Below the pieces are notes generated by a model, which saw nothing but the letters and a program-made list of their open reading frames with translations, had not been told where the DNA came from and did not search any database. The position numbers were made by a program, and so were the translations under genes. Below are positions 24,761 to 55,179 of a DNA stretch of 64,000 nt, one piece after another. Every line of letters begins with the position of its first letter. The stretch's first letter is position 1. The stretch comes from a virus (Duplodnaviria; Caudoviricetes), in IMG/VR virus record IMGVR_UViG_3300032305_002766, positions 1 through 64,000 of that record. One strand, 5' to 3'.

Positions 24761-25369
24761 TTAAAATATAGGACAAGTGCCATTAGCACATAATATGTCA
24801 GTTAATAATGAGTTTACTTTTGAATATGGGTTTTTATTTACTTTATTTTCTTTACCTTCTTTAACCAAATGCATGTATGAACCTGGGTTAGAAGGGGTTG
24901 ATACAAAATCCCAACATAATAATTCAAAATCATCTTGTACCTCTAATGTTTCACCAATTTGTTTTAATGAACCCATTCCACGAGATGATACACCTACTGT
25001 AACATTATTTTCAATAAGTGCTTTTAAAATATTACCGGATACTGTAGGGAGAATTTCTATTTTACCTAATACTTTATCTCCATCCCACCAACAATCTCTA
25101 ATGATGTGAGATACATTTTTAAGATTAATAATAGAAGAATCAGGGTGATCTAATTCACCTGTTGCTCTATTTCCTCTAACAACATCTTGGTATTTGTTAA
25201 TTTCTCGTTCCCATAATTCTTTAGGATAATATCTTCCATTTCCGTTTTTAACTTCAGCTGTGGCTAATATTCCTTCAACTAATGGGTTTCCGGAAGGTGC
25301 TTTCATACCTTCAGTTAGTTGAAGTGGAGATACTGAAAAGGGAATGGTTTCTATTAATACTTGTTTCAT
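24761..25369 (-). CDS. gp21: Prohead core protease, T4 gp21-like
   Basis: NGNGRYYP, GELDHP, VSH, GVSSRGMGS, DFVSTPS. Confidence 0.92.
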   Translation of the reverse strand: MKQVLIETIPFSVSPLQLTEGMKAPSGNPLVEGILATAEVKNGNGRYYPKELWEREINKYQDVVRGNRATGELDHPDSSIINLKNVSHIIRDCWWDGDKVLGKIEILPTVSGNILKALIENNVTVGVSSRGMGSLKQIGETLEVQDDFELLCWDFVSTPSNPGSYMHLVKEGKENKVNKNPYSKVNSLLTDILCANGTCPIF

Positions 25370-33036: not shown

Positions 33037-33037
33037 A

Positions 33038-33310
33038 TTAAAATCGTGTTGTTCCTTTCATTGATGAATTCTTATACCAAGGTAATCCTTCTCTACTTTT
33101 AAGAGTTTCTTTATATAATTTCTCAGTATATTTAATCCCATTAAGATAGTATTCTTTTTTCAATTTACAATCTTTATCAACAGGTTCAATTGCTGGACCA
33201 TCCCAATTGTGGAGTTTCCAACTTGATTCTCCAAGTAATTTAATGAAATGATGTTTAGCACCATTCATTTTCATTACTTTTAAGTCATATAGTTTTTCTT
33301 TAGTTTCCAT
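33038..33310 (-). CDS. Hypothetical protein with LHNWDGPA motif
   Basis: 90 aa; KLHNWDGPA...EYYLNG. Confidence 0.55.
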   Translation of the reverse strand: METKEKLYDLKVMKMNGAKHHFIKLLGESSWKLHNWDGPAIEPVDKDCKLKKEYYLNGIKYTEKLYKETLKSREGLPWYKNSSMKGTTRF

Positions 33311-33314
33311 ATTG

Positions 33315-33346
33315 TAAATGTAATAAAAATATTTTAAATATCCTAA
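33315..33346 (-). promoter_or_regulatory. Class A promoter TTAG-N20-TACATTTA, 4 nt before ATG 33310
   Basis: Same 20-nt spacer. Confidence 0.6.
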
Positions 33347-34660: not shown

Positions 34661-34677
34661 ATTTATATTTTAACGTT

Positions 34678-34709
34678 TAAATATACGAAAAAAAAGCTGT
34701 GGCTCCAAA
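34678..34709 (-). promoter_or_regulatory. Class A promoter TTTG-N20-TATATTTA upstream of the FAD oxidoreductase
   Basis: Same 20-nt spacer; overlaps the terminator hairpin. Confidence 0.65.
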
Positions 34710-34725
34710 TTAATGGGCCACAGCT
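34688..34725 (-). terminator. Intrinsic terminator closing the cargo block
   Basis: agctgtggc(t)cca / tgggccacagct stem with U8 tract on the minus strand. Confidence 0.85.
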
Positions 34726-34770
34726 CCTAAAATTTTTTAAAAATCGACAGGCTATGAATCTGTCTGTATG

Positions 34771-35244
34771 TTATAATTTTTTAATATATTGTACTCTATC
34801 TCCACGTCCAAAAAGATAATGATCATCAACTAATCCTAACCAAAAGTCATATGAAGTAGTTTTACCAGAATTATCTTTAACTCCATTTTCAATAGCTTTA
34901 TCTAACATATCTTGGGTAAGATTTACTACATATTCATCACCTCCTGAACCATTATCAATAGTAAATCCTATTTCATATTTTCCAGGGATTATATCTTCAA
35001 TGTATGAATTTCTTAAATCTTGATTTTCATTAAGAGATTGGATTTTTTCTTTAGCTTGGGAATAATTAAGAGTAACTTTTGTTCCTCTTTTTTTAGAAAT
35101 TAATTTAATTACATATCCATTATCTGAGAAAACTCGATGTGGTTCTCCCATATACATTACTTCCTCACCTACTTCAAACATATTTTCAGTTAAAACACGT
35201 TTAATTTCTTCTTTAAGAAGAGCTTTAAATTCAGATTTTTTCAC
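34771..35244 (-). CDS. Two-module putative internal head protein
   Basis: Leader MKKSEFKALLKEEIKRVLTE; SH3-like module; second module after SLNE. Confidence 0.5.
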   Translation of the reverse strand: MKKSEFKALLKEEIKRVLTENMFEVGEEVMYMGEPHRVFSDNGYVIKLISKKRGTKVTLNYSQAKEKIQSLNENQDLRNSYIEDIIPGKYEIGFTIDNGSGGDEYVVNLTQDMLDKAIENGVKDNSGKTTSYDFWLGLVDDHYLFGRGDRVQYIKKL

Positions 35245-35507
35245 GATTTATATATTTTTAATCTTAAGTTTCCTGTTCCTTTAATAACACGATGCCATTC
35301 GTGTCTTGGTATAAATATACGTTCTTTTAAGGAGGTAGGCAAATTATTATCTAATTGAAGTTGCCAATCTGTATCTTCCAAGATTTCAACTATTCTATCC
35401 TCATCATCACGATGCCAAAGTAATTCTATTGGATCTATATTTTCGGTAAATTCACGAATAATATATTTGTCAGTAACTTCTATGTCGTTGTAGGGTTTAC
35501 TCATCAT
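35241..35507 (-). CDS. Small cupin-fold protein
   Basis: WHRD...FIPRHEWHRVIKG; start reassigned to MMSKPY at 35507. Confidence 0.6.
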   Translation of the reverse strand: MMSKPYNDIEVTDKYIIREFTENIDPIELLWHRDDEDRIVEILEDTDWQLQLDNNLPTSLKERIFIPRHEWHRVIKGTGNLRLKIYKS

Positions 35508-36156
35508 AGTTAAATTTAGTAGCATTAGCTGCAGTCCATCTATCTTGATTTTCACATATCCATGTTTTAGTAGAAAATCTAAAATATGGAGTTTTTAAAT
35601 CCGTTGAAGATGTTTGTGATTGATGCTTCCAAAGTATACGATTATTTGGTTGAGCAGCAAATTGTCCATTATCTAATTTAATTATATTAAATGATTTATG
35701 TTCATTTGGTGTCTCAGCCCATGATATATCTAATTCATTTGGTTCTGAAGAGCAGGAGTCTATTGTAAAAAGATAATAACCAGGGGCTTTACTTTTATCT
35801 TTCATGATGACTTCACATCTTGCATTTCTTAATCTTTGTTTTTTAATAACAGTTATATTATATGAAAAACAATCCCATAATTGTAACCAATCTAAAGGAT
35901 ATAGTTTATCTTCATTTATATCTGTTTTCCAAACATATGCATGTAAAGGTAATTTATCATATAAAGCACCATAATCATGAATAAGTGATTCAAAGTATAA
36001 TGCTTGATTTGGTATTGATTTAGTTGATATCCAATGAGCTGATTCAAATTCTCCTTTTCCAAGAAATTTATTATTTTTATCTAACTCAAAGTCATATAAA
36101 AATTCTTTTTTTATAAAAACCTCAATTGGGGGGAGATTAGCTACTAAATAACTCAT
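35497..36156 (-). CDS. Conserved phage hypothetical protein
   Basis: 219-aa ORF, YLVANLPP...GALYDKLPLHA...LDNGQFAAQPNNR. Confidence 0.6.
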   Translation of the reverse strand: MSYLVANLPPIEVFIKKEFLYDFELDKNNKFLGKGEFESAHWISTKSIPNQALYFESLIHDYGALYDKLPLHAYVWKTDINEDKLYPLDWLQLWDCFSYNITVIKKQRLRNARCEVIMKDKSKAPGYYLFTIDSCSSEPNELDISWAETPNEHKSFNIIKLDNGQFAAQPNNRILWKHQSQTSSTDLKTPYFRFSTKTWICENQDRWTAANATKFNYDE

Positions 36157-36488
36157 TTTTTATCTCTAATTAATAATTCACCTAGTACTTCTAAACGACC
36201 CACTTCTCTTTGAAATTCAATTGGTGTCATATTCAAAGATATTTTTTTTAATGTTTTTTCAAATTCTTTTTTAGATGCTTCTTCATCAAATTTACCTTCA
36301 GTAGCTTTTTTATAGTATGGAGCTTTAACTTTAAAATGATGCCAAGTTAAAAGTGCTAAACCGCCTTTTTCTTCAGCGTTTGCTGCTATTTTAGCCGCAC
36401 CTTCACCACGTTTTTTAGCAAATTCTTCAAAAGTTTCTTTTGCTTCTTTTAATAGTTCAAGTAAATTTATCATTTTGTTTTTCCCCAT
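36153..36488 (-). CDS. Putative internal head protein (likely start MINLLELLKE)
   Basis: K/E-rich with LKE leader. Confidence 0.5.
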   Translation of the reverse strand: MGKNKMINLLELLKEAKETFEEFAKKRGEGAAKIAANAEEKGGLALLTWHHFKVKAPYYKKATEGKFDEEASKKEFEKTLKKISLNMTPIEFQREVGRLEVLGELLIRDKK

Positions 36489-36901
36489 TTTTTACCTTTT
36501 CCAGGTGTTTTACATTGTGATGCTGTAGGGCGGCATGAAGGATATTTAGCACGTTTTTCGCCTTTTTGACGACCACAAGATTTATATCCTACTATTTTAC
36601 CATCTTTTCTAATAGGAGAATTACAATCTACCCAACCTCCTGTTTTACCAGGTGCTCCTTGACGTTTGAACCATTTACGTAAAGATTCATCTTCTTTTAT
36701 TATAGTAGAAATGGTTTCTCTTAATTGACTTTCTTTAACGCTTTTCCAAATTTCTCCTTTACGACATCTAACTACAGCTCCTGATTTGTAAGCTGAAGGT
36801 TTGTCAAATTTACGATCAGCAATACGTAAACATCTGTCTCGTTTAACCTTCTTTTCTTGAAGGACCTCACTAATAATTTTTTTCAATTTATCCATCACCA
36901 A
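36470..36901 (-). CDS. Basic Cys-containing two-module protein (SAYKSG module + SLRKWF module)
   Basis: Modules follow LQE and IKE sites. Confidence 0.5.
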   Translation of the reverse strand: MVMDKLKKIISEVLQEKKVKRDRCLRIADRKFDKPSAYKSGAVVRCRKGEIWKSVKESQLRETISTIIKEDESLRKWFKRQGAPGKTGGWVDCNSPIRKDGKIVGYKSCGRQKGEKRAKYPSCRPTASQCKTPGKGKKWGKTK

Positions 36902-37590
36902 AATCCTGAAAATGAAGATTTTAATCCAAGTAATTTAGCATATCTAGGTAATCTACAGCTCCAGTATGAAGCTTTAGTTCTATCTGTTTTTTGAGAACAT
37001 TTATGGCGTTTAGCAAATGCTGCTCTTGCTTTTGGATTATTAATTTTAGCAGACATACCTGCTTGACCAAATGATACTTTTTTAATTCGTTTAGTTTTAG
37101 GATTACGAACATAAACATAAAACTTTTTAGAACCCCCACGCATTGGTTTTCCAATTGGTGGGTTTTTCTTTTTAGGTTTTGATTTAGCTTCGTCTAATTC
37201 CTCTTCAATTTCTTCAAAAATATAATCTAATGGAACTTTTTTATTTTCATAAATAGCAAATTCACCTAAATTAGTTTCAGTTAAAATCTCTAAATCATCA
37301 CCTGTAAAGTTTAAAATACCTCTAGAGTATAATGATCTTGCTTCTGCCCATAAATTAAAATAACTTTGGGATCCAGCACGATAAACATGTTCAGTAAGTG
37401 GTTTTTTATTATCTAAATGATATTTTAATCCTTCAGATAGTATTTCACGTGGAGCTAAACTTTCATTTAAAACAATTGGAGCTTTAGTTTTTCCACATTT
37501 GTCTCCACATCCGCAACCACAATCTGTGGTTTTAGATTCTAATACTTCTCTAATTAATTGGTGTAAGTTTTCCATATTATCTAAGTACAA
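36895..37590 (-). CDS. Modular protein with basic C-terminal KKVSFG...RHxC...YWSC domain (likely start 37575)
   Basis: MENLHQLIREVLE leader; LNE and LDE junctions. Confidence 0.5.
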   Translation of the reverse strand: MYLDNMENLHQLIREVLESKTTDCGCGCGDKCGKTKAPIVLNESLAPREILSEGLKYHLDNKKPLTEHVYRAGSQSYFNLWAEARSLYSRGILNFTGDDLEILTETNLGEFAIYENKKVPLDYIFEEIEEELDEAKSKPKKKNPPIGKPMRGGSKKFYVYVRNPKTKRIKKVSFGQAGMSAKINNPKARAAFAKRHKCSQKTDRTKASYWSCRLPRYAKLLGLKSSFSGFW

Positions 37591-38689
37591 TTTGGGGATT
37601 TGTATTATCCCATTTATATCCTAAAGTAGGTGCTTTAACTACAGTATCAATATACCCTGCATTTACTACTTCAGAAAGTTTATCAACATCTATTAATACA
37701 TAATCACCACTTGATGAATTAAGCATTAAAAAAGAATCTACGTTATTTTTAGAAGCATAAGAAGCAGCATTTAATTCTAGGATTTTTTTCTTCATATCCT
37801 CTAAATTTTGAAAATCTGCAGGACCATTAAAGAATTTACTAGCTAATCCTTGATTAAAATATATTTGATCAAGAATTTTTTGAATATATGAAATTACTTC
37901 TTCGGATTTATACCCGTTTTTAGTTGCTCTTTCATATATATCTTTTAAAGCATAGTTGATATTTCCATTGCTAGGTTCAGAAAGAAATTCTTCTAATTCT
38001 TCTCCATCTAAAAATTTATCTCCTATAATTTCTAAGTAATTAGTAGAACTACCTCTACCACCTTGTTGACCAAATCTACCACCTGTTCCTTTAACCTCAA
38101 GGTTTTTACCATTGAAATTTAAGTCACCACCACCGCTTCTATTATCAACATCTTTAAAAACTAATGCTAAAAATACTTCGGCTTTACCGATAGAAGAACC
38201 ACTTGCATCTAGGCCTGGTTCTATGTTAATAAGATCTTTTACTAGTTGGTCTGAGAGTCCAGTTACTTGAGCTAGATTACCTTTATCACTTGCTCCTTCA
38301 AGGGATTTAGGTTTTTTAAGGTAATCTATAAGTTCTTTAGTTTCGGTATCTGTTAATTTATCTAAGATATATTCTAAAGACGATTCTTTTGTTTTAAAAC
38401 TTTCAGGAGTATATCCTTTTTGATTTAAATATGATTTTAATTCACCTCTAGATCCCGAACCGGAAATGCTTTTAAACAGCTTTTTAAGGGTTTCATCGGG
38501 GATATCGGATGATTTTATTAAATCGATGAGTTTATTTTTTAAATCTTCTTCTTCGGGGTTTTCATCGGCCTCTAATATATTGTTAACCATTTCAAATAAC
38601 ATTTTTTTATCCTCAGGGCTACCCATATCAGGATATCCTTTAGGAAATTTATAAGCTACATTATTTATGATTCTATCAAAAACGTTCAT
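37577..38689 (-). CDS. Protein with C-terminal PD-(D/E)XK-like nuclease motif
   Basis: GKAE...GGGD...NLEVKG arrangement. Confidence 0.45.
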   Translation of the reverse strand: MNVFDRIINNVAYKFPKGYPDMGSPEDKKMLFEMVNNILEADENPEEEDLKNKLIDLIKSSDIPDETLKKLFKSISGSGSRGELKSYLNQKGYTPESFKTKESSLEYILDKLTDTETKELIDYLKKPKSLEGASDKGNLAQVTGLSDQLVKDLINIEPGLDASGSSIGKAEVFLALVFKDVDNRSGGGDLNFNGKNLEVKGTGGRFGQQGGRGSSTNYLEIIGDKFLDGEELEEFLSEPSNGNINYALKDIYERATKNGYKSEEVISYIQKILDQIYFNQGLASKFFNGPADFQNLEDMKKKILELNAASYASKNNVDSFLMLNSSSGDYVLIDVDKLSEVVNAGYIDTVVKAPTLGYKWDNTNPQIVLR

Positions 38690-39168
38690 TATGCTGGGGT
38701 TTCTTCTGCTGGTGTTTCTTCTTCCTCTGGTGGGGTTGTTTCCTCACCTGCTGCTGCTTCTTCACCTTCAACTTTTGGTTCTTCTTGAATACCATATGCT
38801 AATAATCGAGAGATAGCTTCGGCAGCGGATTGTTCTTCACCAAGATTTAATAAATAATATTTTTTACCTTCTACTTGTGCAATCCAACTTCGTTCGGTAT
38901 AAATTAACATAAAATTTTCCATATTGCCTAATACAATACGAAAAGTTGTTGGACGAGGAGCTACCCATTGTATATCAGTCATGAATACCTCATACTGATT
39001 TGTAAGTAGATCAATAATGACTTTTTTAAGTTGTGGAAATTTTCCTAATACAGGAAATTTATCGGCATCAAGAGATATTTCTTCTCCTTTATCAATATCA
39101 ACTTGTTTTTCAGCATATGATTGCTTAACAATTGATTTAATTTTATCTCTTAATTCACTTTTATTCAT
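38689..39168 (-). CDS. Putative internal head protein (MNKSELRDKIKSIVKQSYAE leader)
   Basis: Shared leader motif, acidic tail. Confidence 0.5.
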   Translation of the reverse strand: MNKSELRDKIKSIVKQSYAEKQVDIDKGEEISLDADKFPVLGKFPQLKKVIIDLLTNQYEVFMTDIQWVAPRPTTFRIVLGNMENFMLIYTERSWIAQVEGKKYYLLNLGEEQSAAEAISRLLAYGIQEEPKVEGEEAAAGEETTPPEEEETPAEETPA

Positions 39169-39186
39169 TATTCAGACTTTAACTTT

Positions 39187-41099
39187 TTAGCTAATTTTTT
39201 CAGCAATTGATCCTGTTTTCTTTTTAGCTTGAGAAAATTTTTCAATACTAGCAATATCCATTATTCTACCATCTTCATGTTTAAAAAACTTTTCTTTAGT
39301 TTTTTTATCTATTTGGATGGGATAATCTTTTCCTTTATAAGTATAAGTATCTGTAGTTACTTCGTAATTAGTACTTATAGGATTTAGTGAAGATGTTGAG
39401 GTAGAAGTTTTAGTAGAAGTAAACCTACCTTTTTCATCTCTTGCAGGAGTTGATTTAGGTGTAGATGTAGGTTGAGATGTTGGTTGAGATGTTGGTTGAG
39501 ATGTTGGTTCTTCTTGGGCAAAAACTTTACCTGCTGCGATTGCTGTGTTGGCTTGGCTAGTTTGATTTAATAATCTTTTATAAGCATCAATAGTTTGTTG
39601 AATTTCTTTAGGAGCTTTATTTAATGATGTTTGAGGAAATAATTTATTTATATCGTTTACTACATCAGCAAGTTCTTTTTCTAAGGTTTTAGCTTTTTGT
39701 CCTAATTTAGCCATTCCTGCTTCTAATTTAGGATTTTTTAAATCTTTACCCATAAAAGATCTACCTATATTCCCTAATCCTGTTCCTACAAAAGCACCAG
39801 CACCTTTAGTTTGAGCTTTTAATCTATCTAAAAAACCCTCAGATACTTTATCAACTAATTCTTCTTCTTTTATATGTTTTTTTAATTTTTTAACATATTT
39901 TTCTCTACCTTTTTCTAAACTTTTAGTTAGTTTAGCAGGTTTGTCAGAAGGTTTAGATTGTGGGCGACCATATTTTTGTAAATTGGTAGCTAAAGCGTAC
40001 TTTAATCCTTCTTTATCTTCGGCTTTTTTTTTTCTTCCATCATTGATGGTTTACCTGTTATATCATCGATAAAAGCATCTACTTTAGGTTCTGCTAATTC
40101 AAATTCTAAATAATGTTTAGCACTTGATATCATAGTTTTAGCAGTAGTAATTTTTGATTGCCACCAAGCTGGGAGATCAATTTCACCACCTCTTTCTTCT
40201 AATTCATCCATAATACTATAAAGCATCATAGAATATTTTCCTATTTTATATAGTTCTGATTTGATATGGTGTGGTTCATTATCTTCATGACCTAAGTCGA
40301 TATCCTCTGTGTACATATCTTTTGGGAATTCAATACCTACAGAATAATTTTGAGGCATAAGATCATCAAATTTACCTTCTAATCCTAAAGCTTTTAAAGC
40401 ATCTTTAATATCTTTGTAAGTATAAGGTTCTTTTAAATTAATTTTAACACCTTGTTTTTGAAGTGATCTTACTAAATCTTCGGGAGCTTGAAATTCTCTA
40501 ATTTCACCTTTTGCTTTTTTAATGATGGATTTTTGCAAAGCATCAGGTAATTTTTTCTGTTTACCTTTTAATGCTGGGTTATTGTCGTATTCTTTAGAAA
40601 ATGAAATGGCTTCTTTCATTTTAAGTTTATCGTCAGGAGCATATTGATTGTAAAGTGTTTTAGCATCTTCACCGTATCCTAAATCAACCAATTGTTTTAC
40701 TACACTACCAATTTTTTTATCATATAATGAACCTGCAAGGAATGATCTATTATCATCGGACATATAGTAATACCAATCGAATCCTTTTAAAAGAGATTCT
40801 AATCTATTCATCAAGGCAGATGCTTGAGATAAGTCTTGCTCATCTTCATATCTATCGGCACCAACTTCAACATCCATTTCTTGCATTAGAGATTTTCTAA
40901 CTAATTCTTTGATACGAGTTTTATGAGTATTTTCTTCCATTTCTACTGCTTTTTTAGCTGCGTTTATTGCTTTTCCAATAACAACCCTTTCAGCCTCTTT
41001 CCCATAAGTCTTAACAAGCTTACGCTTGTTTTTCTTAATCATGTTCCTTTTAATTTGAGCACTTTTATTAAGTACTTTAGGGGAAAGTTCGTTTTCCAT
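39187..41099 (-). CDS. Modular cargo protein split by a -1 frame change at an A10 run (0 frame 41099-40002; -1 frame open 40023-39187; fused ~637 aa)
   Basis: Hand translation: the -1 frame after the A run reads AEDKEGLKYAL...VSEGFLDRLKAQ...MGKDL without a stop and joins track ORF 39187-39753. Confidence 0.7.
39470..39505. repeat. 12-nt tandem repeat x3 (PTSQ linker)
   Basis: ggttgagatgtt x3. Confidence 0.9.
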
Positions 41100-41269
41100 T
41101 ATTTTTTATCTTCGGTGATTGATGCTTTTTTATATTCAGCAACCAATTTTTTAATTTCACCTAATACTTTACGAGCACGTCCGTGAGCTGCTTTTGAAGT
41201 TCCAGCATGTTCTGCTTTAAATGATTCGTAAAGTGCTTCAATTTTTTCAAAAATTTCTGTTGTATTCAT
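41099..41269 (-). CDS. Histone H1-like (Hc1-family) small basic protein, 56 aa
   Basis: Not in track; MNTTEIFEKIEALYESFKAEHAGTSKAAHGRARKVLGEIKKLVAEYKKASITEDKK; KAA..RARK motif; TAATG coupling to the next gene. Confidence 0.7.
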   Translation of the reverse strand: MNTTEIFEKIEALYESFKAEHAGTSKAAHGRARKVLGEIKKLVAEYKKASITEDKK

Positions 41270-41288
41270 AATTTTTATTATTTATAGA

Positions 41289-42755
41289 TTATTTATTTAA
41301 TTTAGTCCACATTGGGAACGTAACTTCTTTAATTTTCATAGAAGATTCTTTTTCATCACCTTCAGCTAATCCTGGTTTTTCAACTACGTGGGTACGAGTA
41401 AAGAATGTAATTGTATTACCAATTTGATCCATTAATTTTTTATCACCTAATTGTTCAGCAGCTGCTTGAGCTTGTGTCAAAGCATCTTGTACTGATTTTA
41501 CATTTGGATCAACTTCGGCGGTAGTCATTGTATCTGTTACTTCAACATCTTCTGTACCTTCAGGAGTTTCAATTTCTGCATCTGCTGTTTCAGTATCAGT
41601 TGCTTCAGCGTCTACTTCCTCATCTGCTTCATTTAAATTTCCTAATTTTTTAACAGCTTTTACTAAAAGATCATATGCTTGTTTAACTTCTTTAGAATCG
41701 TATAATTCTGCATGATATTCATCATATAAAAGAAGATCAAGTGCTTTAAGAAATGAAGCAATACGAGCTGGTTTTGCAGTTTCAAATTCATCTGCTTCGT
41801 TCATAAAATCATATAAACTATTTTCTTTTGATGGATTCTCAACATCAAGTTCAACTTCTGCTAAAACCATTTCTTTGATTTTAGCTTTTAATTCTGATAC
41901 TTTCATTTTCTTTTTTTCTATTTCTTCGCCTTTTTTAACACCAGCTCCGTATACATCTTCTTCGCCTTTGTTTTTAGCTACTTTGTTCTTTTTTCCTTTT
42001 GCTACTCGTTGAAATTCAGTGTCACCTTCTTCTAATGTTCTCATATTAGCATATACTTCTTGGGGTGTAACGGAGGCATTTATAATATTTCCCTCTGAAT
42101 CGATGAAGTAACTTCCTCCCTCAGTTGAAAGGATTTCATCTCCTTTTATTATATCTAAATCAAAGGATGATGGTTCAACTGAACCTGGGGTTACGGTAAA
42201 TTTTATATTTTCTTTGTCCGACATGTAGTCAGCAAATCTTTTAGCTACGTTAGCTGTTTCTTGTGTATTTAATGTAGGTTTTTCCATTTTTTCTTGTAGA
42301 TATTCATCATCTCTATCTCCCGTGATATAATCATCATCATCTTCTTCACCAGCATACCATGATTGATTAGGATCATTTGGTGCTTCTTCAGTAAAATCAT
42401 GCATTTTCCAGTTAAAGTTAGGATTAGTAACTAATGCCGGATATAAAATTCCTTTTTTTCCTGAAAATGCTAAACTGATTCCTTCTGATCTATCTGGGTT
42501 AGCCATGCCATTCATTTGGGCTAATAATTCGTAATAATCTTTACCACCAAAATCACCATACCCTTCATAATTTTTTTCTAACCATTTATTACCTTTGTTG
42601 TCAAACATATAAACAGCACGAAGTGTGTTTTCAGGTTCAGAACCAATTTGTTGGTCTGTATCCTGGGTAAACCATGAAAATTGACCTTCGGTCAATGAGG
42701 AATGAAATGTTGCTTTATTTTCTAATATAGCTTTTCTAAGATCGAATTTTTTCAT
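41289..42755 (-). CDS. Modular acidic putative internal head protein
   Basis: 488 aa; junctions LTE, LQE, LEE, MNE, LNE; internal MKVSELKAKIKEMVLAE. Confidence 0.5.
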   Translation of the reverse strand: MKKFDLRKAILENKATFHSSLTEGQFSWFTQDTDQQIGSEPENTLRAVYMFDNKGNKWLEKNYEGYGDFGGKDYYELLAQMNGMANPDRSEGISLAFSGKKGILYPALVTNPNFNWKMHDFTEEAPNDPNQSWYAGEEDDDDYITGDRDDEYLQEKMEKPTLNTQETANVAKRFADYMSDKENIKFTVTPGSVEPSSFDLDIIKGDEILSTEGGSYFIDSEGNIINASVTPQEVYANMRTLEEGDTEFQRVAKGKKNKVAKNKGEEDVYGAGVKKGEEIEKKKMKVSELKAKIKEMVLAEVELDVENPSKENSLYDFMNEADEFETAKPARIASFLKALDLLLYDEYHAELYDSKEVKQAYDLLVKAVKKLGNLNEADEEVDAEATDTETADAEIETPEGTEDVEVTDTMTTAEVDPNVKSVQDALTQAQAAAEQLGDKKLMDQIGNTITFFTRTHVVEKPGLAEGDEKESSMKIKEVTFPMWTKLNK

Positions 42756-42779
42756 TTTTGGGTATATGTTATAAATATG

Positions 42780-44003
42780 TTATTTTTTAAAATTACTTTT
42801 AAGTTTTCGTAATATAGTTTCAGCTAATGTATTTTCGTACCCTGAGTCATAATCATAATCATCATCTTCACCAATATTCCAATCATCAATTTCAATATCT
42901 TGAGAATTTAAATCATAAAAGAAATCATAGATATCTGATGGAGTGTTTGAAGCATATAAAGTATCATCGTATTTTTTAATATCAAAATTATCTCTATATT
43001 CGTCATATGTACCTATTGCTTTACGAGCATCTCTGTTTGATACTTTAACGAAATATTTTTCATCAATTTCACCACCCATACCTTCTTTTATATTGGGGTT
43101 ATCGCCTAACGCAAATTTTTCGTAATTTTGTAAATCGTTATAATATTTAATTTGATGTTTTTTACCATCTGTATCAATACCATAAACTATTGCATCAAAT
43201 TTACCCATTCCATCATCACGTTTACCTGAGAGGAATTGTCTTAGTGATGATTTAGCACGTGCCTTATTAATGAAGGATAATTGTTCTTCTTTAATTTCTT
43301 CAGTAGCACCTACAATTTCTTCGTAATCATCCATTTGTAAGATACCTCTTTCTTTACCTAATTTATTTGCTTTTTCAGTAACGTCATGTAAATCTAAATC
43401 TTGTTCAGCATCTTCTCTAGCATATTCCAACATACGAAGGAATAAAGGAATATCCATTGTAATTGTATCAACGGCATCTTCTTCTTTAGCTTCTAATAAG
43501 TTCTTTTTAAGATAAGAAGCGTCAATGTCAATTTCTAAACTAACATTTCCTTCTTTGGCTTTTTCGTTATGAGGTTTGATAACAAGTTTACCAACATTGT
43601 CTTTTACCTTCATTACTTTCCAATCTTCACCATCCTTAAATTTAAGGATATCACCAACTTTATAATCAGAAATAGATTTAGATTCATATGCTGTTGTCAT
43701 AGCTTCATTTATACCTTGGAAATTAGTTGTTCTAAGAGCTTGCATGATAGCATATACAGCATCTTGTTCTGAGTAATCATAGTGATTGGCAAGGGCTTTA
43801 ATAAATCTATTTACTTTATTAATTACTTCTGGGTTTATACCTTCATTTAGGTTTGAAATTTCATCTCTAACCCATTCTTTTTCATTTGGACCTAATTGAT
43901 CATAATCCATACCAAACTCTTCGTTTGCTATTTCATCATATATATCTCTTTCTTCTTTTAAAGGTTTAGAAAAGAATTCTTTAATTTTTTGTAAATCTTT
44001 CAT
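42780..44003 (-). CDS. Modular acidic putative internal head protein
   Basis: 407 aa; junctions LKE, LNE, INE, LLE, IKE; SH3-like and TMDIPLFLRMLEYARED modules. Confidence 0.5.
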   Translation of the reverse strand: MKDLQKIKEFFSKPLKEERDIYDEIANEEFGMDYDQLGPNEKEWVRDEISNLNEGINPEVINKVNRFIKALANHYDYSEQDAVYAIMQALRTTNFQGINEAMTTAYESKSISDYKVGDILKFKDGEDWKVMKVKDNVGKLVIKPHNEKAKEGNVSLEIDIDASYLKKNLLEAKEEDAVDTITMDIPLFLRMLEYAREDAEQDLDLHDVTEKANKLGKERGILQMDDYEEIVGATEEIKEEQLSFINKARAKSSLRQFLSGKRDDGMGKFDAIVYGIDTDGKKHQIKYYNDLQNYEKFALGDNPNIKEGMGGEIDEKYFVKVSNRDARKAIGTYDEYRDNFDIKKYDDTLYASNTPSDIYDFFYDLNSQDIEIDDWNIGEDDDYDYDSGYENTLAETILRKLKSNFKK

Positions 44004-44626
44004 TTGGTTGATTTTAAATAATCAGTTAGTAGTGAACCAATAGCCCCTACTTTCTGTCTTATAAATATCCATTCTTCTCTGGATAATTTATGTTCTTTAT
44101 CATTAAATGCTATTCCCATTACTCCTATAAAATGTTTATCTAAATCATCTATAGCAATCATGTAAAATGATTTAGTACCATAATCACGAGCAAAAATACT
44201 CAAATCATATGTTTCATCAGTGTTATAATTAACAACAGCTAATTCACCATCTTTATAAAGTTTAGATAATGCTTTAGGGAATAAAGATACAGGGATTTGT
44301 TGAAAAATATGTTGGATAGTTCCAGTATTAGGAGTGATTTTTTCGTAAAAAAGAGAAAATTTCTGAATGGATTTCCCTGTAGGGAAAAAATGACCACCAT
44401 TGTGGAATTGACCTATCCAAATACGATCACATTCTATTTCTTCCATAATCTGATCTAGTTGTTTATCAACTAGTTCATTTAAGTCAATGGCTTCTTTTAC
44501 TGGGGATAGTTTTTCAGTTTTAGATTGTTTTTCTAATTTATTTTTAAACCAAGTTATGATTAAAGGCCCTACTACAGTGGTAATAAGAGCAACAGCAATC
44601 GTTGTAATTGTTGCTAAAATTGTCAT
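44000..44626 (-). CDS. Single N-terminal TM + GAF-like domain protein (holin candidate)
   Basis: TM at aa ~3-26; CDRIWIGQFHNG...IGVMGIAF resembles a GAF fold. Confidence 0.4.
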   Translation of the reverse strand: MTILATITTIAVALITTVVGPLIITWFKNKLEKQSKTEKLSPVKEAIDLNELVDKQLDQIMEEIECDRIWIGQFHNGGHFFPTGKSIQKFSLFYEKITPNTGTIQHIFQQIPVSLFPKALSKLYKDGELAVVNYNTDETYDLSIFARDYGTKSFYMIAIDDLDKHFIGVMGIAFNDKEHKLSREEWIFIRQKVGAIGSLLTDYLKSTK

Positions 44627-45195
44627 TCTTTTCTTTGTTTATGAAGATGTTCTAATGCTTCTTGTTTATATTTCAATAATTGATTTTTTCCAGAACCGCT
44701 CCAATTTTCTATATCACCCGCCTCCGTAACAAAGGTTTCGTTACTGTTGATTAATTCATCTACCCAAATTTCGAAATCTTTAGTAACACCATCTAAATGA
44801 TCATTAATAACTTGTTTTTCTACTTGTTCTAATTTTCCTTGTTTTCTTAATTCGTGTTCACTATCTACCTGGCAATTAAAACAGTGGCTATACATTACAT
44901 ACCATTGTTTATCTAAATGAGGTTTTAATGATTTAGAACAAGAAGGGCAAAATAAAGGTAATACTATACCTTCTTTTGCCTTATCTAATTTTGTAATATT
45001 TTGTTTTATACCATTTTTAATAGTCCATGATCGTCCGTCTTCTTCCCATACATCTCCTTCATCATGGAATTCTTTTGCTTTTGTATAACCAGTTCCCATA
45101 GTAGTTTTTTCTCCATACTTACCTTGGACAAGATTACGGAGACGATTAACGTCACTATGTTTAAACTCTTTTTTTAAAACTGAATCGTTTTTCAT
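44623..45195 (-). CDS. Hypothetical protein with CxxC...CxxC zinc site
   Basis: CPSC...CFNC. Confidence 0.55.
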   Translation of the reverse strand: MKNDSVLKKEFKHSDVNRLRNLVQGKYGEKTTMGTGYTKAKEFHDEGDVWEEDGRSWTIKNGIKQNITKLDKAKEGIVLPLFCPSCSKSLKPHLDKQWYVMYSHCFNCQVDSEHELRKQGKLEQVEKQVINDHLDGVTKDFEIWVDELINSNETFVTEAGDIENWSGSGKNQLLKYKQEALEHLHKQRKE

Positions 45196-45464
45196 TTGTT
45201 TGCTGCTGTTATTGGTTTCTGTAATTTAATTATTGCTTTCATTTTATATTTCCCAGCAATGTTTTTAATTTTTTTAGAAACCGTATCTGCCCCGGATCCA
45301 TTTAAATCTACAACTAAAGTATCTTCTTTAATAGGTGATTTAATCACTCTATGTTCTAATTCACTATAATTTGTTGTAAAAAAACTACTTAGAAAATAAG
45401 TACTAAGATCAACATTGGTTTTCTCTACTTCATTTCCGCTAATAACTACTCTTCTAAAGGCCAT
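45192..45464 (-). CDS. Hypothetical protein, 90 aa
   Basis: Fills the gap with a 4-nt overlap. Confidence 0.5.
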   Translation of the reverse strand: MAFRRVVISGNEVEKTNVDLSTYFLSSFFTTNYSELEHRVIKSPIKEDTLVVDLNGSGADTVSKKIKNIAGKYKMKAIIKLQKPITAANK

Positions 45465-45491
45465 ATTTTATTGTTTTGATTAGGTGTAAAT

Positions 45492-48400
45492 TTAATGACC
45501 CTTTTTGGCTTTTCCAAGTTCTTCCAATGGTAATTTTGGAGAAGTGGTTTTAAAATCTCGTTTACGCATAACAGTTTTAGCAACTAAATCCATTTCATCA
45601 TTTTTAGCATCGTAATTTAATGCAAATGGTAAATTGATACTAGTACGTAAATCGTTTAATACGGCTTCAAAATTGTCAGGGAAATCAGATAATTTCTTTC
45701 CATATTTTTCGGCTGTTTTGATAAATAAATCTTCAAGTTCTTCAGCTGAGATAGGTTTTCCATTACGTGGATCATTTACTCTTTCAAGAAAATGGTAAGT
45801 AAATTCTACATCAATGCCGTAATCCTCAAACCACTCATCTGCTATTTTTTCGATTTGATTTAAATCGCTTCTAGTTATTTCTTCTTTTAATTCTTGAACT
45901 AATTCACGAGCATATTCTTTTAAACCAAATGGGTCTGATTTTGGGGTATTATTGTGCCAGCATTTATGGCAAGTAAATAAATCGTTTCCTCCATCTTTTA
46001 TAGCCCATTTCCAACCACATTTATCACATATAATATCAGTTGCAGTCATTAATTCTTTTACAGGAGCAAACCCTGAACCATAAGGTAAGGCTGTACCTGC
46101 TTGTGGGTCAGATGCTTCTTTCATTTTATTTAAACGTTGTGTCTTCTTTTTAGACATTTCTTTACGTTTTTCAATATAATCTAAAGCACGTTTTAATCTT
46201 GATTTCACTTCAGGATCTTTTGCTTTACCATAAGCTGCTCTTACTCGTTGGTGAATTAAGTTAATTACTTGAGATTGACGAGCGTGTGCTTTAGATTTAA
46301 ATGATTTTTTATTTAAAGTATCAACGATATCTTCTTTGGTTTTAAATTTAACTCTAACTGTATCTGATGGATCTTCATCTGTGTATAATCTACGACCTGA
46401 TCCTTTAGGTTTTTTACCTGTTCCTTTTTTAGGATCATTTTCTGGGATTATTAGTTCGTTTAGGTTTTCTATGTCTGTAGGGTATGATTTGGTTTTAGAA
46501 TAAAATTCTATCATCCATGGTAATTGTTTCCATGAGTCTACTCCGTTAGGTGTTTCAGCATCAAAATATTTACCTTCATATTCAACCCAAACATGTCCTA
46601 ATGTATTATTTCTAGAATCTTCTGTACTCATTATTTTAGAGCCAGGTAAATATTTACTTAAATTTTTAGCAAAAATATCACAGAAACCATTATTACATTC
46701 TTTTCCTCCAAATTTATCCCAATTTTTATATGTTATTTTTAATGCATCTTTTTCTGTTTGGGATAATGCTTTTTGATGTATATTCAATTCTGCTACTATA
46801 GCATTACCTGGGAAGTAGGTTATTATATTCTCGCCTTGTTGTTTAATTTTAGCATCAGGAAATACTTTTAATATAAATGCTTTATATAAATTATCTCTTT
46901 GGTTACTAAAATCTTCTTCGCTTGATTTTTTAGAAGGGGAGTATAAAATTGCTTTAATATCTCCTCTATACTGTCTTAAATAATGTTTAATAATATTCGT
47001 TATTGTAGACATTACTCTATATAGTTCTCCTTTATTGACTACTATTTTTGAAGATGAACCCTCAGCACCTTTAGGTTTTGCTAAAAATTCAATATCCATA
47101 GCTTCCATAGACATATCCTCATCTTCAGGATCGTCAATTTCGATATGTGTTAAATCTACCTCATATTTGGTTTCGGAAGGTGTGGTAAATTCTATAGAAG
47201 TAACTCGACCACTACTATCAACTTCTGTCCACTTATAAGGTTCAAGATTAGCTTCACCTACTTCATTTATTGGGAAGAATTTATCTTTAAATTTAGAAGG
47301 ATATGTTGAAAATTTACCTTTACTTAAAAAATTAGTTAGTGTACCTAATAATGTAGTTCCTGAAATTCCTAAAATGGGAATAGCGCTCATTTTGAATATG
47401 TCTACAACATTACGATGTAACTTTTCTTTTTCTTCAGGAGTTAATTCTTGTTTTTTAATATATTTGGTAAATAATTCTTTAAATCCTTTAAAATCACCTG
47501 TTTGATCTTTATAAGCTGATTTGAAAGTGGAAATTAGGTTTTTAGTTTTATCTAAAATCCCTTCGTCTAATTTAGTTTTACTATCTGACCATTTTCTAAA
47601 TTCAATATTACCATTTAGATAGGCTTCTTTTTCTATAGTTTCTAAATAATCGTCTTCATTTGTATTAGTAGTATTAATATCACCATTACCTATTCTACCT
47701 TCAAGATTTTGTATATGATGGATCATTTCATGAGAAAATGAACGTACAATATCTTTTGGATGACGACCATAAGTGTAAAGTACAATTAATTTATCATTAG
47801 GATTATAATATGCTGTTTTACCAAAAAAGTCTTCAGCATTCTTACTATCATCATGTATAAATTTTACTTTAGGCAAAGGACGAATATTCATACCTTTATC
47901 TAACATGTATTTTGTTAGATCTTGTATTTTTTCTTTATAATCTGTGTTTATTAAATTTTCTTGTAAAGGTAAAGATAAAGCTTTAGCTCTTTGTTTCCAT
48001 AAATCTAAAATATTATTTCTATCTTTTTTATTTAATCTTACTTTATCAAAATAATCATTAATTACATCTTTAAAAGGTGTTTTTGATTTTTTAGCTTTCA
48101 AGTACATACCTTGAAGCATAGCATCTACCTCTTTTTCTAATTTAAAGTATTCTGATTTAGGTAAAACTTTTAAAGCAATTAAATTTCGTAAAATTTCATC
48201 ATCTTCCATTTCTTTAGACGAAATTACATTAGACCCGGCTTGAGTTAAATGTTCAATTTCATGTCTAACAACATCTATTAGATCATTATATATGGTTTCC
48301 CATTTTTGAGGTAAATCTCTAGGATCTACTTGGAATTTAATTTCTAAATATGCTGGGGTTCTTAATGGATCTGCTCCTCCATCTACTCTATAAACTTCTG

Positions 48401-49154
48401 TTTTTGTTTCTTTAACATTTAAAGTAGCATAAAGTTCAAAGTTAATAGATTGACCTTTAGAATTTTCGGATTCATAATCCTCATTATATTCTAAAAGTTC
48501 AGGAGTACCATCATATTGACTTTTCCAATCATTAATTATATCTTTAACAATCATTCTTGTTAATGAATCATAACGACCTTCATTGATGGTTTCTTTTCCT
48601 TCTAATAGATCCTTAAGTTTAATAATAACATTTTGAGGAGTATCTATTAAAATCCCAATCCCACCTGCTTGTTCAAAAGCTCTAATGTTTTCGGGTTTAT
48701 CATCAATTAATACGGAATTTGGTGTAGCCCATAATGCTTTTTCTTTACCATTTTTGGACCAATTCATTGGTAATGAACCTATATTTTTTGTAACCCATTC
48801 TGTTTTACCATCAATGGGAGCATCAAAAAATCTTCTACCAGTTAATTCTTTATTTGCTTTAGATAATTCAGGAACAGCAGAAAGTATTTCAACTTTATTG
48901 AAATTATTTTTAGCAAAATCAACCATTTCTTTAGCTCCTGGAATGATAGGGGCATTAAGCCAATAATCTAGATTTTCAACTGTATCTTGAGGTTTGATTT
49001 TTCTATCTTCACCAGTTTCAGGATCCTTAATAAACGTAGTTGCTAAATTTTGAGTGTAGTTTGATAAAGTATCATCTACATCAAAATAAATAATATAGTC
49101 TCGATTATCTTCTTCTAAAAGATCCTCCAATAAGAATTTGGTAAGCAAATCCAT
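45492..49154 (-). CDS. 1220-aa polyvalent protein: HAD 5'-nucleotidase, two zincin (HExxH) domains, Cys-His-Asp papain/transglutaminase-like domain, Zn ribbon, others
   Basis: YFDVDDT/LIDD, HEIEH, HEMIH, GFC...HVWV...YFDAE, CDKC...CHKC, HFLER motifs. Confidence 0.75.
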   Translation of the reverse strand: MDLLTKFLLEDLLEEDNRDYIIYFDVDDTLSNYTQNLATTFIKDPETGEDRKIKPQDTVENLDYWLNAPIIPGAKEMVDFAKNNFNKVEILSAVPELSKANKELTGRRFFDAPIDGKTEWVTKNIGSLPMNWSKNGKEKALWATPNSVLIDDKPENIRAFEQAGGIGILIDTPQNVIIKLKDLLEGKETINEGRYDSLTRMIVKDIINDWKSQYDGTPELLEYNEDYESENSKGQSINFELYATLNVKETKTEVYRVDGGADPLRTPAYLEIKFQVDPRDLPQKWETIYNDLIDVVRHEIEHLTQAGSNVISSKEMEDDEILRNLIALKVLPKSEYFKLEKEVDAMLQGMYLKAKKSKTPFKDVINDYFDKVRLNKKDRNNILDLWKQRAKALSLPLQENLINTDYKEKIQDLTKYMLDKGMNIRPLPKVKFIHDDSKNAEDFFGKTAYYNPNDKLIVLYTYGRHPKDIVRSFSHEMIHHIQNLEGRIGNGDINTTNTNEDDYLETIEKEAYLNGNIEFRKWSDSKTKLDEGILDKTKNLISTFKSAYKDQTGDFKGFKELFTKYIKKQELTPEEKEKLHRNVVDIFKMSAIPILGISGTTLLGTLTNFLSKGKFSTYPSKFKDKFFPINEVGEANLEPYKWTEVDSSGRVTSIEFTTPSETKYEVDLTHIEIDDPEDEDMSMEAMDIEFLAKPKGAEGSSSKIVVNKGELYRVMSTITNIIKHYLRQYRGDIKAILYSPSKKSSEEDFSNQRDNLYKAFILKVFPDAKIKQQGENIITYFPGNAIVAELNIHQKALSQTEKDALKITYKNWDKFGGKECNNGFCDIFAKNLSKYLPGSKIMSTEDSRNNTLGHVWVEYEGKYFDAETPNGVDSWKQLPWMIEFYSKTKSYPTDIENLNELIIPENDPKKGTGKKPKGSGRRLYTDEDPSDTVRVKFKTKEDIVDTLNKKSFKSKAHARQSQVINLIHQRVRAAYGKAKDPEVKSRLKRALDYIEKRKEMSKKKTQRLNKMKEASDPQAGTALPYGSGFAPVKELMTATDIICDKCGWKWAIKDGGNDLFTCHKCWHNNTPKSDPFGLKEYARELVQELKEEITRSDLNQIEKIADEWFEDYGIDVEFTYHFLERVNDPRNGKPISAEELEDLFIKTAEKYGKKLSDFPDNFEAVLNDLRTSINLPFALNYDAKNDEMDLVAKTVMRKRDFKTTSPKLPLEELGKAKKGH

Positions 49155-49156
49155 TA

Positions 49157-49522
49157 TTATTTAAGCTTTTGGATTTTTTCTTTTGCAGCTGCTTTCTTTT
49201 CTTCAATATCTTTTTTAGCACCACGGAAAGCTTCCATTGCCTCTTCCATTTCTTTAAGCTGCGATTCATATTCCATGAAAGCTTCATTAGCATGACGATT
49301 AGCCTCAGAGCGGTTTTTATAAACACCTTTAGTTTCCTCCATTTTGATTTCGTCAAATACAGTAGCTTCGCAAACCATTCCTTCTTTAGTCATACCTTTA
49401 CCAGGTTTTTTAACTACGAAAAATTTACCAATTTCATCTACTACAGTTGGACTATCCTCTTCTTTAATGGATTTTTTATCTTTTTTTTCTTCTACTTCTT
49501 TAAGTAAGTCTAATAATTTCAT
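49157..49522 (-). CDS. Putative internal head protein (MKLLDLLKE leader)
   Basis: K/E-rich 121 aa. Confidence 0.5.
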   Translation of the reverse strand: MKLLDLLKEVEEKKDKKSIKEEDSPTVVDEIGKFFVVKKPGKGMTKEGMVCEATVFDEIKMEETKGVYKNRSEANRHANEAFMEYESQLKEMEEAMEAFRGAKKDIEEKKAAAKEKIQKLK

Positions 49523-49620
49523 AATTATATAGTTTTGTTCGGATGATAAATACTTAATAATTTTGTTTCTTATCGTTTATTTTTACATTTTTTAATTAAT
49601 TCATATAAATGATATAATAA

Positions 49621-49643
49621 ATGCCACTCAATTTGAATGGCAT
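49621..49643. terminator. Hairpin after the exonuclease gene (weak terminator candidate)
   Basis: atgccactca / tgaatggcat, 9 of 10 pairs; U-tract poor. Confidence 0.35.
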
Positions 49644-49704
49644 TCTATAAAAATGTGATAAATATTTATAAAAACGTTTTGTTTCAATTGTTTCCGCTAT
49701 ATTT

Positions 49705-54516: not shown

Positions 54517-55179
54517 TTAAGATACTTGAGTTACTGTTACAGGGATTGTTAAACGAGCACCTGAATCTCTACCTTCTACAGTTAATGTAGCTTGTAATTG
54601 ATTATTTGAACCAAACAATGTATTCACTGTTGTTGCTCTTAAGTTAATTGTACTACCAACAACTGTTTTAGATACGGATGTACCTAGTGTTTGTGTTTGG
54701 TTTGATAAATTAAGTGCCTGTACAGCTGGTGTGTTAATACCAATACCTTCAAATGTACTAAATAAACGAACATCTGAGATTGTTGCTGTATAACCTGCTG
54801 TTTCATAAGTATTCCCACCTAAATAATTTAATGTTTGAGGTGTGATTGCTAATGAAGCACCTTGTTTAATTATAATTGCACTGTAACCTAAATCAAGGAT
54901 AGGCATTTTAGCAGTTCCACGAGGTAAAGTAACTAATTTATATTTCATTACTTGTGTTGCTTGCGGAAATGCTTCTAATAAAGGCATGTTTTGGATAGCT
55001 TCACCATAATATGCAGAACCTGAGGGATGATTTGGATTATAAAGTGTATAATCTATTTCATCATCAGCTAAAGCAAATTGAGTGATTCTAAATTGACCAT
55101 CATTTTGTGCTAGTAACTGGCGTCCTGTATCTGTAAGGATTGCATCTATTGTTACTACGCTGTTATTTAAATATCCCAT
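54517..55179 (-). CDS. Baseplate/tail structural protein
   Basis: IDAILTDTGRQLLA...FALADDEIDY; structural context. Confidence 0.55.
   Translation of the reverse strand: MGYLNNSVVTIDAILTDTGRQLLAQNDGQFRITQFALADDEIDYTLYNPNHPSGSAYYGEAIQNMPLLEAFPQATQVMKYKLVTLPRGTAKMPILDLGYSAIIIKQGASLAITPQTLNYLGGNTYETAGYTATISDVRLFSTFEGIGINTPAVQALNLSNQTQTLGTSVSKTVVGSTINLRATTVNTLFGSNNQLQATLTVEGRDSGARLTIPVTVTQVS

Follow-up and report, generated by a model that had tools for sequence, protein, structure and literature searches.

The capsid-targeting sequence (CTS) of phage T4, MKTYQEFIAE (PMC8442874), consists of 10 residues, of which residues 4 and 7 serve targeting and residues 8 and 10 serve processing (PMC9026906). 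The T4 protease gp21, which carries an LIE site near its own N-terminus, cleaves C-terminal to Glu where P3 is hydrophobic (PMC9026906), and in phage SPN3US all identified substrate cleavages, self-cleavage of the protease excepted, remove N-terminal propeptides that are multiply cut and largely cleared (PMC10052503). Polyvalent proteins place two to fifteen domains in one polypeptide and are predicted to be delivered with DNA, their processing having been proposed to occur through zincins or a fused assemblin-like peptidase (PMC5512222). Here we consider a gene at 45492..49154 on the minus strand of a 64,000-nucleotide stretch (the window) of IMG/VR record IMGVR_UViG_3300032305_002766. The window belongs to a 79-kb fragment that covers roughly half the genome of an uncultured phage (G+C content ~30%). 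The carrier is a T4-like, aquatic phage. On the sequence evidence, the 1220-amino acid (aa) product of the gene (P0001) is probably polyvalent cargo, a polyprotein that is targeted to the capsid and then cleaved by the prohead protease, a reading that we hold with moderate confidence.

The product shares features with both groups of proteins. As in polyvalent proteins, nine disparate modules are joined in one phage protein that includes a zincin hub (module 3), and, as with the T4 CTS, a leader of ~10 aa ends in hydrophobic-x-Glu, the leader stands on unrelated cargo, and the phage encodes a gp21-family protease. The original prediction, made from the letters of the window, had described a multienzyme polyprotein whose domains are separated by prohead protease–type sites. 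Its 1220-aa open reading frame (ORF) is real, and the eight junctions that it named all fall on Glu codons (a slash marks the putative cut): INE192/G, LQE399/N, LDE531/G, INE631/V, VAE789/L, LNE900/L, MKE1013/A, and LKE1091/E. For the last of these, which had been written LKEE/I, the position is right, but the conserved cut falls after E1091 and not after the second Glu. A further joint, VKE1034/L, had been overlooked and bounds a 21-aa spacer. The segments of the polyprotein are as follows.

49110..49154, minus strand: leader, aa 1–15, MDLLTKFLLE/DLLE/E, CTS-like, with a hydrophobic residue at 8 and Glu at 10.
48579..49109, minus strand: module 1, aa 16–192, HAD-superfamily 5'-nucleotidase of the NT5C type, ending in INE192/G.
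47958..48578, minus strand: module 2, aa 193–399, zincin-like domain with an HExxH motif (HEIEH), ending in LQE399/N.
47562..47957, minus strand: module 3, aa 400–531, small zincin (HEMIHH) of the Wss1/SprT/ArdC type, ending in LDE531/G.
47262..47561, minus strand: module 4, aa 532–631, one hydrophobic helix, ending in INE631/V, with a second site at VGE634/A.
46788..47261, minus strand: module 5, aa 632–789, DUF6934 with a GNAT-like fold, ending in VAE789/L.
46455..46787, minus strand: module 6, aa 790–900, YunG-like domain, with ends LNE900/L and LIIPE905/N.
46116..46454, minus strand: module 7, aa 901–1013, basic domain (DPKKGTGKKPKGSGRRLYTDE...), ending in MKE1013/A.
46053..46115, minus strand: spacer of 21 aa, aa 1014–1034, ASDPQAGT...SGFAPVKE/L, with sites at both ends.
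45882..46052, minus strand: module 8, aa 1035–1091, CxxC...CxxC zinc ribbon with a leader-like helical tail, LKEYARELVQELKE/E.
45495..45881, minus strand: module 9, aa 1092–1220, phrog_23027/14518 domain, ending in PKLPLEE1212/ and an 8-aa tail.

The borders of these modules can be drawn from the relatives. A search of 5.8 billion proteins returned >2300 homologues of 671–2135 aa and >2600 shorter ones; they are metagenomic, and a comparison of module order, which the original prediction had called for, finds the same modules in many arrangements (for example, M3-M2-M1, M9-M2-M5-M7, and M7-M8-M9-M3-M2-M1). The close homologues P0003 and P0004 carry exact deletions of aa 790–901 or 791–1009. 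The ends of BLAST segments cluster at aa 186–192, 397–407, 522–531, 629–631, 789–792, 901–903, 1013, 1034, and 1072–1093, and these nine clusters correspond to the eight predicted junctions and the extra one at 1034. Borders defined independently by shuffling thus coincide with the hydrophobic-x-Glu sites, and the alignments show the polyprotein to consist of nine modules, strung together behind a short leader, that shuffle independently of one another.

In all, the polyprotein contains 22 [LIVM]-x-E sites, which is at chance level (22.3 ± 3.9 in shuffles). We dropped the total as an argument; what counts instead is where the sites lie, how well they are conserved, and their depletion from module interiors. 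Fifty-one percent of 823 homology breakpoints on the polyprotein lie within 3 aa of a site, compared with 10% of random positions and 0.4–10% for eight control motifs. Across the family, in an all-against-all comparison of 120 members in which related sequences are counted repeatedly, 49% of 62,818 breakpoints lie that close, compared with 10.8% expected, and control motifs range from 0.5- to 1.7-fold. Module interiors hold seven sites where 20.4 are expected (~3-fold depletion, Poisson P = 6e-4), and in the other ORFs of the phage the motif occurs at an observed/expected ratio of 1.24.

At the joints themselves, the P1 Glu is retained in 41 of 41 aligned relatives at position 192, 53/59 at 399, 50/51 at 531, 81/81 at 631, and 99/115 at 1013. 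Where the joints align best, conservation of the Glu reaches 93–100% irrespective of which modules adjoin. At joint 1034, 95% of the aligned relatives have the full motif and all have the P1 Glu. The Glu score is lower at joints 789 and 900 (57–70%), at least partly through alignment slippage at module ends. P3 is nearly always Leu, Ile, Val, or Met; P1' varies freely (Gly, Asn, Val, Leu, Ala, Glu), as do P8–P4 and the module that follows. The unrelated upstream contexts TPSSFVNE/, SSPKLVFE/, TDIETLNE/, and YPWESLNE/, for example, are all found ahead of VGEANLKP. Non-junction sites keep the full motif in 5–59% of relatives, except for site 1080 (80%), which lies inside the leader-like tail of module 8. 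By these alignments, the hydrophobic-x-Glu motif is shown to be selectively maintained at the end of each module.

Structure predictions give a view of five joints (192, 399, 531, 631, and 789). In an AlphaFold model of aa 186–531 with a predicted local distance difference test (pLDDT) score of 89.6, E399 lies in coil (pLDDT ~61) between two domains that score >90, and the ends of this model and of the module 5 model are flexible. The models show the joints to be linkers at the modeled positions, and the interior depletion and the placement of E399 in low-confidence coil both go against sites lying inside folded domains, an outcome that would have told against the original prediction.

The leader behaves as a unit of its own. 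The pattern MxxLTKxLL, with a site at positions 8–14, is present on 114 of 119 long homologues, and among all 239 retrieved homologues that bear this leader the next module is an HxGH nucleotidyltransferase (another module seen in relatives) in 149 and a HAD domain in 19, which are unrelated folds. In the polyprotein, the phrog_2643 profile alignment begins at residue 16, past the leader, and MDLLTKFLLE is hydrophobic at positions 4, 7, and 8, with Glu as its tenth residue. A second leader, MIKLIDILNE/ILSE/ND, begins stand-alone proteins of 181–234 aa that consist of modules 7 and 8 and thus combine a leader and site without a zincin. Because these stand-alone relatives start with a sequence that corresponds to the internal joint ENLNE/LIIPE/ND (aa 896–907) of the polyprotein, this joint, at least, looks like the leader of a once free-standing cargo gene that has become embedded.

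The involvement of a gp21-type protease, which the original prediction had assumed, is in keeping with the gene content of the phage.

24761..25369, minus strand: T4 gp21-type prohead protease (Peptidase_S77; PF03420 at 5.3e-31, over the cut-off; phrog_207 at 4e-57).

All 10 of the long related contigs tested encode an S77 protease. In an alignment of nine sequences, the one from the window and eight from related contigs, the catalytic residues H75 and S128/S129 are invariant, as are an L18-x-E20 near the N-terminus, reminiscent of the LIE site of T4 gp21, and E171 (VKE/G) near the C-terminus. L-x-E20 and E171 are, judging from this alignment, probable autoprocessing sites of the S77 proteases of this clade (window; loci L168–L176), of the sort discussed for T4 gp21. 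The S77 frame of one related contig (G004:C1:50206-50733, behind L040) contains an in-frame TAG, which might reflect an error in sequencing, a pseudogene, or reassignment of the stop codon.

We propose that the polyprotein gene would be expressed late, along with the virion genes, and that the 10-aa leader would dock the precursor onto the prohead scaffolding core. The activated S77 protease would then take off the leader and cut after Glu at each exposed joint, yielding roughly equimolar small proteins of 6–24 kDa and a 2-kDa spacer peptide. The small products would stay in the head, exit through the tail with the DNA, and act at the very start of infection. Because the catalytic motifs are invariant and interior sites are depleted, the modules would be released intact and active, and cargo could be gained or lost through recombination at the joints. 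The original prediction had interpreted the gene as a cargo polyprotein of this kind, and the sequence comparisons support that interpretation, all of the computational tests applied to it having turned out as it predicted. Its example of a nucleotidase directed against nucleotide signals finds no support in this analysis. A broader proposition, on which we are evenly divided, is that T4-like aquatic phages use a plug-and-play cargo grammar, in which any enzyme could be loaded by a 10-aa leader and released at hydrophobic-x-Glu joints by the head protease. Stand-alone cargo genes and polyproteins would interconvert by in-frame fusion and fission at joints, with aa 896–907 as a fossil leader.

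Several considerations weigh against packaging and cutting by the prohead protease. Packaging, cleavage, the identity of the cutting protease, equimolarity, injection, and any anti-defense role of single modules are all things that we infer. The homologues and the S77-bearing contigs may form one phage lineage, in which case their co-occurrence is not independent. The breakpoint counts are inflated by relatedness, with the contrast to the controls being large, and the structure models span modules 2 plus 3 and module 5 of the nine. The homologue in the cultured Flavobacterium myophage Immuto (160 kb), gp088, is without an N-terminal leader. A catalytically intact zincin, which could itself process the protein, is found in nearly every homologue. 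Several modules, namely the nucleotidase and, in relatives, the nicotinamide mononucleotide adenylyltransferase (NMNAT)–type transferase, are ordinary cytoplasmic metabolic enzymes. Primase and exonuclease genes lie directly upstream of the polyprotein gene, together with a gene labeled as a nicotinamide adenine dinucleotide (NAD) synthetase, and the promoter-like motif upstream of the polyprotein operon carries a mismatch.

The zincins give rise to the main rival explanation, self-processing, by which one or both zincin modules would cut the joints before packaging, in the head, or after injection, with the prohead protease uninvolved. The two HExxH zincins that had been predicted are borne out by their motifs, and the second also by its fold. 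In module 2, HExxH is invariant (64/64), the AlphaFold2 model exceeds a pLDDT of 90 across most of the domain, and there is a free-standing viral look-alike of 241 aa. A Foldseek search of the two-zincin model (modules 2 and 3) against the Protein Data Bank (PDB) gave nothing at E ≤ 0.001; weak zincin rows were the anthrax lethal factor catalytic domain, IrrE, and selecase. For module 2 there was no solved-fold match in the Foldseek search of the PDB, and the VIA comparison reached module 3 only. Module 3, whose HExxHH is invariant (114/114) and whose relatives match Peptidase_M91/DUF6782, aligned in VIA-align with Wss1 at Z 7.9 (root-mean-square deviation 3.0, 99 aligned), SprT/Spartan at Z 7.0, and ArdC at Z 6.7. 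No other module is as widespread, and it is frequently C-terminal.

Self-processing draws on the fact that nearly all homologues contain a zincin whose HExxH is invariant and which is often the last module, and on the fold of module 3, which is that of the processing hub proposed by Iyer et al. for polyvalent proteins (PMC5512222); DdrB of phage P1 is given in the same work as a processed zincin-bearing head protein (PMC5512222). On the other side, a fixed P1 Glu and hydrophobic P3 with a free P1' follow the logic of a gp21-type serine protease (PMC9026906). The same leader-plus-site arrangement also occurs where no zincin is present, on stand-alone cargo, on the protease, on the scaffold, and on additional ORFs of this phage, which argues against self-processing as well. 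Zincins, moreover, generally recognize P1', and sequence-specific cutting is not known of Wss1/SprT proteases, both of which count against this explanation. We therefore consider self-processing unlikely, if still deserving of serious attention.

A second rival is that the protein is a cytoplasmic multienzyme fusion, unpackaged and uncut, that serves auxiliary nucleotide/NAD metabolism and host takeover. The linkers would then merely be of a favored sequence, and the N-terminal helix would serve, for example, oligomerization or be conserved for translation start. The HAD nucleotidase of the original prediction is confirmed by a match to phrog_2643 (5e-21) and by HAD motif I, DxDxT, in which D25 and D27 are invariant (27/27); NT5C is matched in 41 relatives at E ≤ 0.01, and on the polyprotein itself the Pfam NT5C match is below the gathering score (17.7–20.2 versus 24.8 bits). 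HAD nucleotidases and NMNATs are common among non-virion phage genes, the Immuto homologue is annotated as an NMN adenylyltransferase with the nucleotidase in a separate gene, and the primase, exonuclease, and NAD synthetase–labeled neighbors and the chance-level total of sites fit this explanation too. It leaves unexplained, however, why P1 Glu and a hydrophobic P3 recur in unrelated linkers, why interiors are depleted 3-fold, and why module order is free. Nor does it account for the occurrence of one 10-aa leader ahead of unrelated first modules as well as on stand-alone proteins, or for the match of that leader to the T4 CTS position for position. We regard a cytoplasmic fusion as rather improbable.

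That the protein is a packaged scaffold or core component, degraded and expelled with no fragments retained or injected and with enzyme folds that are incidental or decayed, would fit the many sites in the polyprotein, as in the scaffold-position ORF, and the fate of the T4 core proteins gp22, gp67, and gp68, which are cut into many pieces that exit the head (PMC9026906), but the invariance of the DxD, the two HExxH, and the CxxC pairs across distant relatives and the depletion of interior sites, opposite to the enrichment in the scaffold-like ORF, make it very improbable. That ORF, in the position of gp22 (22113–23396, minus strand), has 32 [LIVM]-x-E sites compared with 17 expected, an excess due in part to acidic MMEE/DDMMEE repeats, and is very acidic (17% Glu); such richness in sites would be expected of a core protein that is cut to pieces.

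The remaining modules differ in how far they can be assigned. Module 4 shuffles as one unit and found no match among families or in an ESM Atlas feature search. Module 5 (aa 632–789), which the original prediction had left without a function, matches DUF6934 in 42 relatives, where it is frequently duplicated. Its AlphaFold2 model (pLDDT 81) matched the GNAT-like domain of ICL2 in Foldseek at 1.6e-4 (probability 1.0), and all of the 50 best VIA rows are GNAT-fold proteins, at Z 6.6–8.6. With Z scores that are middling, the model supports a GNAT assignment at the fold level only. An invariant N-K-G-E occupies the loop equivalent to acetyl-CoA motif A, and the full Q/R-x-x-G-x-G/A is not evident.

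Module 6 gives weak matches to Phage_YunG-like (PF24591) and is missing from P0003 and P0004; the Cys-His-Asp residues of the papain/transglutaminase-like domain that the original prediction had suggested are conserved in only 64–81% of aligned relatives (C825 in 27/36, H854 in 27/42, and D865 in 34/42). Module 7 belongs to no known family, and its ESM Atlas features led to unnamed viral clusters only (0.83–0.84). The spacer has breakpoints at 1013 and 1034, and in relatives its SGFAPV[NK]E end stands ahead of other modules. The zinc ribbon predicted for module 8 agrees with conserved CxxC pairs, each of the four Cys being matched in 89–90 of ~100 aligned relatives with the remainder mostly gaps, and with zinc-ribbon Pfam matches in relatives. 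Module 9 matches phrog_23027 at 5e-19 and stands alone in Melnitz and phiM12-type phages. The RNase-type domain that had been suggested for its HFLER motif gains weak support from matches of nine of 18 relatives to REGB_T4 (5/18) or DUF4258 (4/18), and these matches, the best at 1.3e-4, are all below the cut-off; H1121 is invariant, and R1125 is present in at least 90% of the 18 aligned relatives. We consider module 9 a candidate BECR (RegB-like) RNase on the basis of these profiles. Sequence and profile searches of the PDB with modules 6, 9, and 2 plus 3 gave no meaningful match.

Other members of the family carry additional modules, with matches to Fe/Mn superoxide dismutase (PF00081/PF02777), a Pol-beta-type nucleotidyltransferase (PF14792), and a sheath-like protein (PF04984) in P0007, P0075, and P0014. 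In Immuto (L001, NC_055915, 6285–9609), gp088 is 907 aa long and begins with a Pol-beta-type transferase module; an internal leader-like stretch, TLAE/ALDDG, stands ahead of its NMNAT module. The separate nucleotidase gene of Immuto, gp087, has the leader-like start MKKVMGNLADLLLEE.

Nearly all genes of the window lie on the minus strand, and Immuto shows a similar gene order and several similar proteins. Along the direction of transcription, baseplate and tail genes are followed by a small primase-exonuclease island and then by a block at 31.9–49.6 kb, mostly of unknown genes, that holds the polyprotein gene. Downstream of the block are the terminase, portal, S77 protease, and major capsid protein genes and then fiber genes, such that the polyprotein gene is on the virion-gene strand, flanked by the baseplate/tail genes and the terminase-portal-head module. 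Immediately upstream of it are two further features.

49157..49522, minus strand: ORF of 121 aa that ends 2 nucleotides (nt) ahead of the polyprotein start and has a leader-like N-terminus, MKLLDLLKE/V.
49545..49552, minus strand: promoter-like motif TATTTATC, one mismatch from aaTATTTATAa, 30 nt ahead of ORF 49157–49522.

The 121-aa ORF, whose start is of the second leader type, is probably cotranscribed with the polyprotein gene, and a promoter function for TATTTATC is suggested by its sequence. The motif (a)aTATTTATAa, which shows ~9-fold enrichment in upstream regions, precedes many virion genes at a distance of 13–36 nt from the start codon. In the window, it lies upstream of 621–1808, 4596–4838, 5736–10382, 16759–17178, 26811–27680, 27715–29607, 41289–42755, and 54517–55179, and a further site lies upstream of genome 64132–64476. 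We consider it a candidate late promoter from its placement, unlike the TATAAATA of T4. The T4 late promoter TATAAATA was itself tried as the motif of the window and rejected, since it is not enriched (23 compared with 20 expected) and TATTTATA stands ahead of virion genes instead. Directly after the exonuclease gene, at 49620–49650 on the minus strand, a hairpin, AATGCCA(n11)TGGCATT, is followed by a T-rich run and looks like an intrinsic terminator dividing the primase-exonuclease island from the polyprotein operon. A near-identity DNA search across phage records gave no match.

The block at 31920–49522 (minus strand) contains 22 ORFs, mostly without a family match, and nine or ten begin with amphipathic leaders that end in hydrophobic-x-Glu at positions 8–14, such as MKKSELKEYIRE/A, MKKFDLRKAILE/N, MDKLKKIISE/V, MENLHQLIRE/V, and the MKLLDLLKE/V noted above. 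A site at positions 8–14 is found in nine of the 22 ORFs of the block versus seven of 61 elsewhere, and four of those seven are head genes. Given these starts, the block is possibly a capsid-cargo gene array adjoining the terminase-portal-head module. Beside the protease gene, an ORF of 204 aa (25373–25987, minus strand) starts with MKTLQQEYQLIKE/G, which is strikingly similar to the T4 CTS, and is by this similarity a candidate core or internal protein.

If the polyprotein is indeed packaged and cut by the prohead protease, the T4 capsid-targeting paradigm would no longer be confined to small, single internal proteins but would take in large polyproteins that recombine freely. The processing of polyvalent proteins, left open in Iyer et al. 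2017, would gain a testable answer, namely cleavage of coded joints in trans by the head protease. A leader together with hydrophobic-x-Glu joints would make a simple grammar for spotting injected effectors and anti-defense enzymes in uncultured phages, and the same grammar would be usable for loading designed cargo into capsids. With >2000 proteins, the family is a large natural set in which to study how domains shuffle when protease sites constrain them. Should the broader grammar also hold, thousands of phages would assemble changing, equimolar cocktails of injected enzymes, a polyprotein strategy in double-stranded DNA phages.

The closest counterparts are the T4 proteins IPI, IPII, IPIII, and Alt, which have, as here, a 10-residue leader with a hydrophobic-x-Glu cut at positions 8–10 (MDLLTKFLLE and MIKLIDILNE in this phage). 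In both, the leader is common to otherwise unrelated cargo and the genome encodes a gp21-family protease; Alt is, moreover, a cargo enzyme that is injected with the DNA. In T4, each cargo gene encodes a single domain, and the product is cut once (at both ends in Alt); here as many as nine modules follow one another in a chain that has a site at every joint. The T4 internal proteins have no sequence homology to the polyprotein, and their packaging has been shown by experiment, whereas here it is predicted from sequence. Polyvalent proteins (Iyer, Burroughs, Anand, de Souza, and Aravind, 2017; PMC5512222) resemble the polyprotein in gathering disparate domains around a zincin-like metallopeptidase, in using GNAT, BECR-type RNase, and nucleotide-acting domains, and in their extensive mosaicism. 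Linkers are not mentioned in that work, as judged by a word search, and we found in it no conserved junction motif, CTS leader, or trans-acting gp21-type protease.

Giant phages (phiKZ, 201phi2-1, and SPN3US, with its protease gp245 and the motif A/S/G-x-E) likewise combine a gp21-related protease, Glu cuts at several sites, and proteins that are packaged and ejected. Unlike the propeptides of SPN3US, each segment between sites is here a conserved folded module, and all products would be kept. The polyproteins of RNA viruses and retroviruses share conserved interdomain sites in one product, a viral protease, and equimolar mature proteins. They use other proteases without homology, and the purpose there is expression from one ORF, whereas here it would be co-loading into the head of a double-stranded DNA phage. 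In the literature searched, coverage of which is incomplete, we found no description of junction-coded prohead protease sites in polyvalent proteins. What is new is the combination of a multimodule precursor, a head-protease motif at every joint, and a leader that resembles a capsid address.

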